From IMG/VR virus record IMGVR_UViG_2896607866_000002: a DNA stretch of 10,232 bases; one strand, 5' to 3'. This document shows positions 2,886 to 4,916 of this stretch, piece by piece. The notes beneath the pieces were generated by a model. That model was not told where the DNA came from. It saw only the letters and a list, made by a program, of their open reading frames with translations, and did no database searches. Made by a program: the position numbers and the translations under genes. The DNA comes from a virus. Taxonomy: Duplodnaviria; Heunggongvirae; Uroviricota; Caudoviricetes. Positions within the stretch are counted from its first letter, which is position 1; each line of letters opens with the position of its first letter.

Positions 2886-3431
2886 GACTATCACTTAAAT
2901 AAGTGATACTGGTTGTCTGGAGATTCAGGGGGCCAGTCTATCCGCTTTCAGAATGGAGTGGCTATTGCTTTTAAGAATATTCAGGCCGGAACTGCCAGAA
3001 AATTCACGTTATCCAGCGCCAACAACTCCACGAAAAATGCAGCGTTTTATTTGTGGGGTAATCCATCCAGGCCTGTTGTTGCAGAGCTTGGTGATGATTC
3101 AGGCTGGCATTTTTTCAGCCAGAGAAACCCGGATAACAGCATAGTGTTCACTGTTAACGGACAGGTAATTCCGTTAAATTACGGAAACTTCGATGCCCGC
3201 TATAAATATCGAACAGAGGGGGTACAGGATGTACGGTATGGCCATGAAATGTATTACAGCCCCGGCAGTAACACCGTTTCGTGGAGATTTTGCGCACCTT
3301 CGGGACACGGGCTGTCAGGGATGGCGATATCGGATACCGGCCGTAACTCAGCGGATAACGTTGACGGTGTGTATTACCGACCACTGCAAAAACTGATTAA
3401 TGGCACCTGGTATAACGTAGCGAGTATTTAA
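2886..3431 (+). pseudogene. Orphan 3' fragment of a phage tail-fibre gene (distal receptor-binding part), with no start codon or 5' region
   Basis: The frame opens at 2886, just after an in-frame TAA, and 49 bp after the IS600 end. There is no ATG or RBS; the ORF track starts it at TTG 2913. It is followed two bases later by a tail-fibre assembly gene, which is the usual stf-tfa pairing. The tail-fibre assignment rests on that context, not on a recognised motif. Confidence 0.45.
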
Positions 3432-3433
3432 CA

Positions 3434-4033
3434 ATGTTGCATTTAAAAAATATTACTGCGGGTAATCCGAAAACAGCAGAACAATATCAGATGACAAAAC
3501 GATATTCGGTCACCTGGCTTTTTTCAGAAGACGGAAAAAACTGGTATGAAGAGCTGAAGAATTTCGCCAGCGACACAATAAAAATAGCTTACACCGGAGA
3601 TGGTCGCGTGGTGTGGGTCGGTAAGGATGTGACAGGCATCGAGCCACGCAATGCCAGCGTTATCGAAGTTCCGGATATTACCGCTAACCGACGGATTACC
3701 GCGCCGGGTTACTGGTTTTACCGCAATGATGAATTTGTCTTTGACTACAGACTCAAAGCGGAAGATGAGCGTGATGCCCTTCTGGCTCAGGTCAGTGCCC
3801 GGACAGGGGAATGGGAAGAAGACCTGCTGCTGGGGTTAATCAGCGACGAAGATAAAGAAAAGCTGAAAGCCTGTCGTATTTACGCGAAATCGCTGCAGGC
3901 GATGGATTTCAGCACCATCACTGATAAATCCTCATACAACGCCATTGAATGGCCGCCTCTCCGGAAGGTTCTTCCTGATTTAATTTATCGCGAGAAAAAC
4001 AATGTCTGTAGTGATATCAGGTGCGCTGACTGA
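3434..4033 (+). CDS. Phage tail-fibre assembly protein (Tfa/gpU-like chaperone)
   Basis: 199-aa ORF with the C-terminal signature of Tfa proteins (...KLKACRIYAKSLQAMDFSTI...NAIEWPPL...), comparable to the conserved E-x-W-x-x-YR / IEWP-x-x-P tail of lambda Tfa and Mu U. It carries about 20 extra C-terminal residues that overlap the next gene's start. Confidence 0.6.
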   Translation: MLHLKNITAGNPKTAEQYQMTKRYSVTWLFSEDGKNWYEELKNFASDTIKIAYTGDGRVVWVGKDVTGIEPRNASVIEVPDITANRRITAPGYWFYRNDEFVFDYRLKAEDERDALLAQVSARTGEWEEDLLLGLISDEDKEKLKACRIYAKSLQAMDFSTITDKSSYNAIEWPPLRKVLPDLIYREKNNVCSDIRCAD

Positions 4034-4916
4034 TGGCGCAGGTATCCCCATGTCCGGATACCATATTATTCTGAAATCCCGGGTAAACACCCCGGAAGTG
4101 GTGATGAACACTGTTGCTGATGTGATGACAGGAAACGATGGTGAATACTGTTTCCATGCGCGGACTGGAAAATATGGTGTGTATCTGAAACAGGACTGGC
4201 GCAACGAGTACAACGTTGGCGACATTGCTGTATATGAGGACTCAAAGCCCGGCACGCTGAATGACTTTCTGATTGCTCCTGATGAGGGCGACCTGAAACC
4301 GGATGTCGTCAAACGCTTTGAGGAAATGGTGGCGCAGGCGCAGCAGAGCGCCGGGGCCGCAGCCGGAAACGCACAGCAGACGGCGCAGGATGTGGCGGCA
4401 GCCGCAGGTTATGCCCGCGCAGCAGAACAGGCCAAAAATGACATTGATGCTGCGCTGACCGGCACCCTGAAAACGGCTAACCATCTGTCTGAAATCGCAG
4501 CAGCAGGCGAAAAGGCACAACAGAAGTCCCGGGATAATCTGGGGCTGAAAAGTGCGGCCACGATGGAAGCACAGAGCGACATTTACGACCGGACAAAAGG
4601 CCGTCTGGCGATACCCGGCGCATTCGGCTTTGGGTGTGCTTTTCTGCCTGAAGATGTTATCCGTTTTGACACTAAGAGTGATTTCCTGGCCTGGGTAAGG
4701 AATGTGCTGCCAGTTGAATATTCCGTTGCTGGCCCCTACGGCATCATCATACCCGACACACGGTTTGAAGGGGGGCTCAGCATCCGGTGGACTGATGCAC
4801 GCCCTGAGACAACAGAACCGCGGTACAGAGCCAAATCCCTTACTTTTTACGGCATTAACGGCCCCATTTATCACACCCGCTACTGCTACTGGCCCATATC
4901 CAGACTGACTGGGTGA
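4002..4916 (+). CDS. Side-tail-fibre protein, N-terminal virion-anchor and Ala/Gln-rich shaft region (lambda Stf-like), 304 aa
   Basis: The N-terminus MSVVISGALTDGAGIPMSGYHIILKSRVNTPEVVMNTV...DIAVYEDSKPGTLNDFL aligns by eye with lambda Stf (MAVKISGVLKDGTGKP...TITVYEDSQPGTLNDFL). It is followed by an Ala/Gln-rich low-complexity tract (AQAQQSAGAAAGNAQQTAQDVAAAAGYARAAEQAKND) and an NLGL motif. At 304 aa it is short for an Stf-type fibre (lambda Stf is several hundred residues longer). Confidence 0.7.
   Translation: MSVVISGALTDGAGIPMSGYHIILKSRVNTPEVVMNTVADVMTGNDGEYCFHARTGKYGVYLKQDWRNEYNVGDIAVYEDSKPGTLNDFLIAPDEGDLKPDVVKRFEEMVAQAQQSAGAAAGNAQQTAQDVAAAAGYARAAEQAKNDIDAALTGTLKTANHLSEIAAAGEKAQQKSRDNLGLKSAATMEAQSDIYDRTKGRLAIPGAFGFGCAFLPEDVIRFDTKSDFLAWVRNVLPVEYSVAGPYGIIIPDTRFEGGLSIRWTDARPETTEPRYRAKSLTFYGINGPIYHTRYCYWPISRLTG

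Follow-up and report, generated by a model that had tools for sequence, protein, structure and literature searches.

The question raised by IMG/VR virus record IMGVR_UViG_2896607866_000002 (Caudoviricetes), a stretch of 10,232 nucleotides (nt) referred to here as the window, is whether its tail-fibre genes have been rearranged. Between positions 2886 and 4916, a start-less distal-fibre fragment and its tail-fibre assembly gene (tfa) stand before a gene which, judged from its open reading frame (ORF), encodes the N-terminal part of a lambda Stf-type fibre. An earlier reading of the letters alone (the sequence-only reading) took this order as a permuted module, formed by recombination at module junctions or left behind by an invertase-driven host-range switch. 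The window was analysed by ORF listing, Pfam profiles, DNA and protein similarity searches, and PHROG families. It is very probable that the order was never rearranged, and that a native tandem-fibre design has decayed here, its anomalies stemming from insertion sequence (IS) insertions and two small deletions. With a similarly high degree of confidence, the region can be assigned to a decayed prophage, lying in a Shigella flexneri-type chromosome and represented by the 3′-end of its late operon, i.e. to an “ipaH island”.

Gene order of the tail-fibre module

The module comprises the following features:

2943-3431, plus strand: fibre gene 1, 3′ fragment (blastp, PHROG)
3434-4033, plus strand: tfa, frameshifted, putative Caudo_TAP chaperone gene for fibre 1 (PF02413, phrog_136)
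3976-4001, plus strand: tfa stop codon TGA and 23-nt spacer, conserved junction (26-mer in IMG/VR loci)
4002-5266, plus strand: fibre gene 2, pseudogene with 304-aa and 117-aa ORFs (PF08400, phrog_2636)
5277-5840, plus strand: DUF4376 gene, 187 aa from GTG at 5277 (PF14301)

The identification of the parts as a fibre tip, Tfa, and a fibre with lambda-Stf-type N-terminus, already made in the sequence-only reading, was borne out by Pfam, blastp and PHROG matches. For their order, 80 IMG/VR loci encoding relatives of the fibre 2 N-terminal domain were fetched. A tfa homologue ended directly upstream of the fibre 2 relative in 69 of the 80 loci, mostly with its stop codon 23 nt before the ATG, and a fibre 1 tip homologue preceded tfa in 62 of the loci. 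The late operon of phage phiP27 likewise ends with L54 (fibre), L55 (tfa), L56 (fibre) and L57, and the same four-gene order was present in gp67-gp70 of phage pPE4. In the prophage located beside pphA in ETEC4090 (enterotoxigenic Escherichia coli, ETEC), baseplate J and another gene are followed by a 505-aa fibre, a 181-aa tfa, a 664-aa phage_tail_N fibre, and a 187-aa DUF4376 gene. Enteroinvasive E. coli (EIEC) CFSAN029787, 96% identical to the window, carries intact 410, 181, 422 and 207-aa genes in this order.

The Stx2e phage phiP27 (NC_003356) matches the window in both the order and the spacing of L54-L57 (fibre, tfa, 23 nt, phage_tail_N fibre, DUF4376), with 77-79% DNA identity over tfa, the fibre 2 N-terminus and the DUF4376 gene. 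In phiP27, however, all four genes are intact and situated behind myovirus baseplate genes, with different fibre tips and without ipaH downstream, whereas in the window fibre gene 1 is without its 5′ part and two frameshifts are present.

The boundary between tfa and fibre gene 2 is equally well conserved. The 26-mer TGATTTAATTTATCGCGAGAAAAAC(A/T), i.e. TGA followed by TTTAATTTATCGCGAGAAAAAC(A/T), was located directly before the fibre 2 ATG in 52 of 75 IMG/VR loci, and close variants of this stop-plus-spacer sequence were present in about nine further loci, giving about 60 loci in all. Positions 3976-4001 of the window are identical to the second commonest variant (12 loci), and the distance from the tfa stop to the fibre 2 ATG is 23 nt also in phiP27, pPE4, ETEC4090 and two EIEC genomes. 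The tfa/fibre 2 boundary is thus a conserved intergenic junction and not a recombination scar, and the window contains the phiP27-type tandem module, with its gene order, tfa stop and 23-nt spacer. The conserved order and spacer, as well as the homologies, indels and IS boundaries given below, are direct observations.

The native design would consist of two tandem receptor-binding fibres, each with its own chaperone encoded next to it. Fibre 1, with a tip resembling P2 gpH, would be served by the Caudo_TAP protein Tfa, and after the 23-nt spacer, fibre 2, with a lambda-Stf-type N-terminus and 422 aa when intact, would be served by the DUF4376 protein, ipaH being carried downstream as cargo. 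Among the options offered by the sequence-only reading, “tandem fibre loci” is therefore the correct description, there being two fibre/chaperone pairs, whereas a module permuted by recombination does not agree with an order that is native in phiP27, pPE4, E. coli prophages, and 69 of the 80 IMG/VR relatives. A fibre gene natively located downstream of tfa, which that reading had itself named as speaking against its proposal, is what was found, save that the 304-aa product is a truncation and not a complete protein. In this phage group, a fibre gene placed after tfa is no evidence of rearrangement.

The module continues past 4916, up to the DUF4376 gene at 5277-5840, which begins 11 nt past the fibre 2 stop codon and occupies the same place in phiP27, pPE4 and E. 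coli prophages. Its product matched PF14301 with 63.8 bits (cut-off 25), and was 74-75% identical over the full length to phiP27 L57, pPE4 gp70 and the ETEC protein. In Alteromonas phages V22 and A5, DUF4376 proteins have been listed as chaperones of the tail fibres (PMC10579305). Judging from this listing and from synteny, the DUF4376 protein would be the chaperone of fibre 2.

Loss of the 5′ part of fibre gene 1

Upstream of the module, the following features were identified:

470-1576: tyrosine integrase gene, 3′-end cut off (Pfam Phage_integrase, partial)
1574-2837, minus strand: IS600, full length, 1264 bp (DNA match to annotated element)
2838-2940, minus strand: IS2 terminal remnant, ca. 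103 bp (DNA match to annotated element)

The product of the start-less fragment, taken as a tail-fibre tip in the sequence-only reading, proved to be one. In blastp it was 54% identical to P2 gpH residues 522-669 (E-value 2e-53). Two 505-aa fibres, that of the ETEC4090 prophage and that of phage pPE4, matched it with 68% identity over their residues 338-505. The DNA was 72% identical to P2 gene H over 263 nt, and PHROG tail-fibre families were matched with an E-value of 3e-44. The fragment resembles the C-terminal receptor-binding region of gpH. Its proposed extent needed correction: the ORF at 2913-3431 (plus strand) does comprise 172 aa, but both position 2886 and the TTG at 2913 fall within the IS2 remnant, and fibre-derived sequence begins only at 2941-2943, which leaves 162 codons and a stop codon of fibre origin.

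Over its 1264 bp, the sequence at 1574-2837 shared 99.5% identity with an element annotated as “IS3-like element IS600 family transposase”, and 2833-2940 shared 97% identity with the terminal part of an annotated “IS3-like element IS2 family transposase”. IS600 truncates the integrase gene on its left, where positions 14-117 of 172 in Pfam Phage_integrase are covered, and interrupts the IS2 copy on its right, about 103 bp from the IS2 end. The outer end of IS2 at 2940 is the breakpoint at which the 5′ part of fibre gene 1 was lost, and the fragment is start-less because of it. Queries by tblastn with the fibre 1 N-terminal part, DUF2612 and baseplate J gave no match in the window, which indicates that the lost genes were not displaced within it. 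The distance between the IS600 and IS2 ends is 3.4 kb in the genome of a relative (L008).

The nearest relative with an intact upstream region was IMG/VR locus L020, located on the 40-kb contig IMGVR_UViG_2874945390_000002; over window positions 2943-7831, the identity was 97.9%. Its gene order is J C-terminal domain, Lom, a 710-aa lambda-Stf-like fibre 1, and tfa, the fibre being composed of phage_tail_N, fibre repeat, Gp34_trimer and a gpH-like tip. The window fragment corresponds to residues 549-710 of this Stf-like protein; fragment and tfa are therefore the end of a canonical stf-tfa pair, as in the lambda-type J-lom-stf-tfa locus. In L020, tfa is followed by the second Stf-N-type fibre gene, the DUF4376 gene and ipaH, whereas the lambda stf-tfa locus is not known to be trailed by a second Stf-N fibre, DUF4376 or ipaH genes. 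Compared with L020, the window is without the stf 5′ part, lom and J. An insertion of IS2, subsequently cut by IS600, would have been associated with the loss of sequence from the integrase gene to about codon 549 of fibre gene 1.

Probable frameshift at the 3′-end of tfa

The tfa ORF (3434-4033, plus strand) encodes 199 aa, and overlaps the fibre 2 ORF by 32 nt at 4002-4033, as the sequence-only reading had noticed. The product matched Caudo_TAP PF02413 over residues 40-175 with 89.8 bits (Pfam gathering cut-off 22.1), and phrog_136 “tail fiber assembly protein” over residues 1-175 with an E-value of 4e-58. Beyond residue 175, there is a tail without profile match.

Alignment to a 97% identical EIEC locus contained just two indels in 3.16 kb. 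In tfa, the window has one C fewer in a CCC run at 3953-3954 than the EIEC locus and the closest Shigella loci. Intact Tfa relatives are 181 aa long and have the C-terminal end AIEWP(V/A)SPEGSS, whereas in the window AIEWP is followed by 25 out-of-frame residues in place of the native last 7; the conserved AIEWPxSPEGSS end is absent. The frameshifted gene passes the native TGA at 3976-3978 and ends at 4033. Both the 25-residue tail and the 32-nt overlap are due to the single-C deletion, since loss of a C in the CCC run would shift the last seven codons and cause read-through into the next gene. Hence the C-terminal tail reported earlier is present, but it is not an extension of about 20 aa past a native end, and the overlap, then regarded as a module junction, comes from a single-base deletion instead.

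Some points weigh against the proposed history of the locus. The 1-nt deletion in tfa is situated in a homopolymer and was found in none of the more than 80 related loci; it may be a mutation private to the window, or else an error made in sequencing or assembly, tfa being intact in that case. The N-terminus of the ancestral fibre 1, whether lambdoid (J-lom-stf) or of myovirus type, is unreadable in the window because it has been deleted. The chaperone role of the DUF4376 protein, in turn, is drawn from synteny and from distant Alteromonas proteins of the same Pfam family.

If the missing C were such an error, the Tfa extension and the overlap would be artefacts, and the real tfa would be a 181-aa gene followed by the 23-nt spacer. 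This alternative is possible, if rather unlikely. In its favour, the deletion is unique to the window among the related loci, among them two Shigella-type loci that share the IS2 junction and read TGGCCCGCC at this site, and the missing base falls in a homopolymer. Against it, a CCC run is short for a homopolymer error, and in a locus which is already decaying, with two IS insertions and a 4-nt deletion common to 10 loci, a further true frameshift is unremarkable. We regard both deletions as probable true mutations and the genes as presumably non-functional here; the partly inactive state suggested in the sequence-only reading agrees with the IS truncation and the frameshifts. The single-C deletion deserves a check as a possible sequence error.

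Truncation of fibre gene 2

The ORF at 4002-4916 (plus strand) encodes 304 aa, of which residues 1-132 matched positions 1-132 of 134 in phage_tail_N PF08400 with 235.9 bits. The Stf-type N-terminus claimed for this gene was thereby upheld. It is not, however, a gene for anchor and shaft only, but a frameshift truncation of a 422-aa fibre. One copy of a tandem CTGG is lost after 4912, which brings an in-frame TGA to 4914-4916, and the remaining 117 codons are located at 4913-5266 in another frame. The ORF thus represents the first 304 codons of a 422-aa gene, and does not include the distal domain of a complete fibre. Intact fibre 2 genes of EIEC strains have 422 aa and carry the repeat CTGGCTGG, from which loss of one CTGG would shift the frame after codon 304. 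With the CTGG restored, the protein was 97.6% identical to the intact EIEC protein, and aligned end to end both with phiP27 L56 (45% identity) and with phrog_2636 (673 bits).

The deletion allele was found in 10 other loci and the intact allele in 16. Because it recurs in 10 loci, the 4-nt deletion is expected to be real. One of these loci is L020 (4001-5265), where J, lom, stf and tfa look intact. Since the allele occurs in this otherwise intact-looking locus, the fibre 2 frameshift probably predates the IS-mediated decay of the window.

A shared allele could also be taken to mean that the 304-aa product functions as a short fibre, or that the two fibre 2 ORFs are joined by programmed frameshifting. 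The occurrence of the 4-nt deletion in 10 related loci, one of which (L020) keeps an intact stf-tfa pair upstream, is in line with this idea. Yet 16 loci have the intact 422-aa allele with CTGGCTGG, the alignment of the repaired protein with phiP27 L56 and phrog_2636 stays in a single frame across the site, and the sharing is simply explained by inheritance within the lineages of Shigella, in which several related ipaH islands occur. A side fibre may moreover be dispensable, as reportedly in lambda PaPa, for which Hendrix and Duda are said to have described the stf frameshift (orf401/orf314) in 1992. There too, a small frameshift gives two adjacent ORFs, the first resembling an N-terminal-only fibre gene; the differences are that another gene copy and position are concerned, that 4 nt in a CTGG repeat are involved here, and that the present element is a non-viable remnant. 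A functional short fibre or a programmed frameshift is accordingly very improbable.

On the reading of two decayed tandem fibres, the apparent rearrangement is the two-fibre design normal for a common group of enterobacterial prophages, in degraded form, and has little import beyond annotation. Annotation as pseudogene fragments is appropriate for all three ORFs.

The ipaH cassette and the nature of the region

Features outside the fibre module and the IS600/IS2 region are as follows:

1-261, minus strand: putative yfhL-like ferredoxin gene
5852-5949, plus strand: tfa relic resembling P2 gpG, 3′ part (DNA and protein match to P2 G)
6020-7846, minus strand: ipaH, intact, 608 aa, effector with leucine-rich repeats (LRR) and NEL E3 ligase (Pfam)
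8297-9745, plus strand: ISEc20 (IS110 family), outside the fibre module (DNA match to annotated elements)
9789-10232, plus strand: pinE-type serine DNA invertase gene, cut by the window end (Pfam Resolvase)

The ipaH product matched Pfam NEL with 253 bits and LRR_TTSS with 62 bits, and EIEC genomes carry it under the annotation IpaHa or IpaHb. Fibre modules without ipaH are homologous to the window at the DNA level only up to 5810, 30 nt before the DUF4376 stop codon, and a junction 36-mer in this region is common to 10 related loci. The relic at 5852-5949 had 76.5% DNA identity to P2 gene G and 73% protein identity to gpG residues 113-145, with a weak Caudo_TAP match. A longer tfa relic upstream of 5849 was rejected, as the similarity crosses stop codons, and only 5852-5949 is credible. 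From these sequences, the ipaH cassette seems to have been joined through fibre/tfa sequences.

In two related loci (L010 and L074, at about 6170-7734, minus strand), the same site, following DUF4376 and the relic of tfa, is occupied by an ipaH allele just 62% identical to that of the window; different members of the ipaH family are therefore found there. A perfect 16+16-nt palindrome (AATGTACTGTTTTTTT / AAAAAAACAGTACATT) was found at 8206-8241, some 360-395 nt before the ipaH start. On the minus strand it reads GTACTGTTTTTTTAAAG, with two mismatches to the MxiE-box consensus, GTATCGTTTTTTTANAG; this pattern had one match in the window against 0.09 expected. ISEc20, 99.5% identical to annotated ISEc20, lies between the ipaH upstream region and pinE, and is absent from the otherwise collinear locus of S. 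flexneri SFBU1023 (L007).

The IS2/fibre junction sequence occurs in S. flexneri SFBU1023, and the window is therefore a Shigella-type “ipaH island”. For S. flexneri, ipaH islands and heavily deleted cryptic prophages have been described (PMC6424224), and a position after the tail-fibre genes is typical of prophage effector genes (PMC3530523). As in these islands and cryptic prophages, a chromosomal ipaH gene is here located amid IS-riddled phage remnants; no essential difference was noted, and what is added is the base-level anatomy of one remnant. The decayed end of a two-fibre prophage carrying ipaH is a kind of object already known. A search for tRNA genes gave no tRNA integration site in the window.

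Mosaicism and the proposed permutation

Among the relatives, fibre 2 shaft and tip are exchanged, and tip homology begins at differing points. The block of fibre 1 tip, tfa, fibre 2 and DUF4376 was located behind myovirus baseplate genes in 53 loci (within IMG/VR L010-L089), and behind lambda-like J-Lom and a 710-aa Stf-like gene in two loci, L020 (1297-3429) among them. One host-range block is therefore used on two tail types. That the block is a portable host-range cassette, and that the ipaH cargo, which has the relic of a P2 gpG-like tfa to its one side and pinE to its other, was captured at a formerly invertase-controlled fibre locus and spread by fibre-module recombination, would be an extension which we consider unlikely.

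The permutation proposed from the sequence would have moved a block of distal tip and tfa ahead of a fibre N-terminal gene, leaving a chimeric locus. Mosaic boundaries do exist in this fibre gene family: DNA homology with ETEC, pPE4 and phiP27 ends at about 4390 and resumes at about 5263, indicating that fibre 2 shaft and tip have been swapped, tip homology starts at 3027 with some relatives and at 3153 with others, and homology stops at 5810 beside the ipaH cassette. The tfa/fibre 2 junction, however, is no breakpoint, as phiP27, pPE4 and the ca. 60 IMG/VR loci share both this order and the 26-nt stop-plus-spacer, and the two features that had suggested a join, the missing fibre 1 start and the 32-nt overlap, are accounted for by the IS2 end at 2940 and the 1-nt deletion, respectively. 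Recombination of the fibre genes is the usual mosaic behaviour and not the cause of the order in the window, and we give hardly any credence to the permutation.

Phage vB_Apl-pPE4 (PP818812.1), the best match in the phage database, is recorded with Actinobacillus pleuropneumoniae as its host. In the tail-fibre region, however, it shares 84% identity with the window and is nearly collinear with the E. coli ETEC prophage, and the stated host may deserve a check.

The invertase gene

According to the second option of the sequence-only reading, the locus would be a relic of a host-range switch like those of Mu G, P1 C and e14 P, in which Pin formerly flipped sets of tip and tfa genes, so that the present order is a frozen inversion product. 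The pinE-type gene from 9789 onward lends itself to this idea, its product matching Pfam Resolvase with 175 bits and the gene being annotated as pinE in EIEC RMDEC465, as do the gpG-like tfa relic between the fibre module and ipaH, and the presence of pin after ipaH also in EIEC and S. flexneri relatives. The likeness to the Mu G (Gin), P1 C (Cin) and e14 P (Pin) systems consists of fibre tip/tfa modules near a Pin-family serine invertase gene. Unlike them, the window is without opposed tip/tfa sets or paired crossover sites, and ipaH and an IS element stand between the invertase gene and the fibres: pinE is located 3.9 kb from the fibre module, past ipaH and ISEc20.

All fibre, tfa and DUF4376 sequences of the window are on the plus strand. 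A search of the whole window gave neither paired inverted crossover sites (about 26 bp) around a segment nor any inverted repeat of at least 14 nt shared by the fibre genes and the region near pin, and the hix/gix-like core AAACCNNGGTTT, with up to two mismatches, had three matches against 4.9 expected, none of them near the fibre genes or pin. Opposite-strand copies of the fibre module were absent from the 88 related loci searched, and within their available flanks the 80 IMG/VR relatives contained neither pin nor opposite-strand copies of tfa, DUF4376 or fibre-N. An inversion history is in consequence scarcely probable. The pin gene was seen in only two ipaH-bearing loci, in both downstream of ipaH, and the cassette starts at the 5810 homology break; pin therefore appears to be part of the cargo region, and does not account for the order of fibre 1, tfa and fibre 2.

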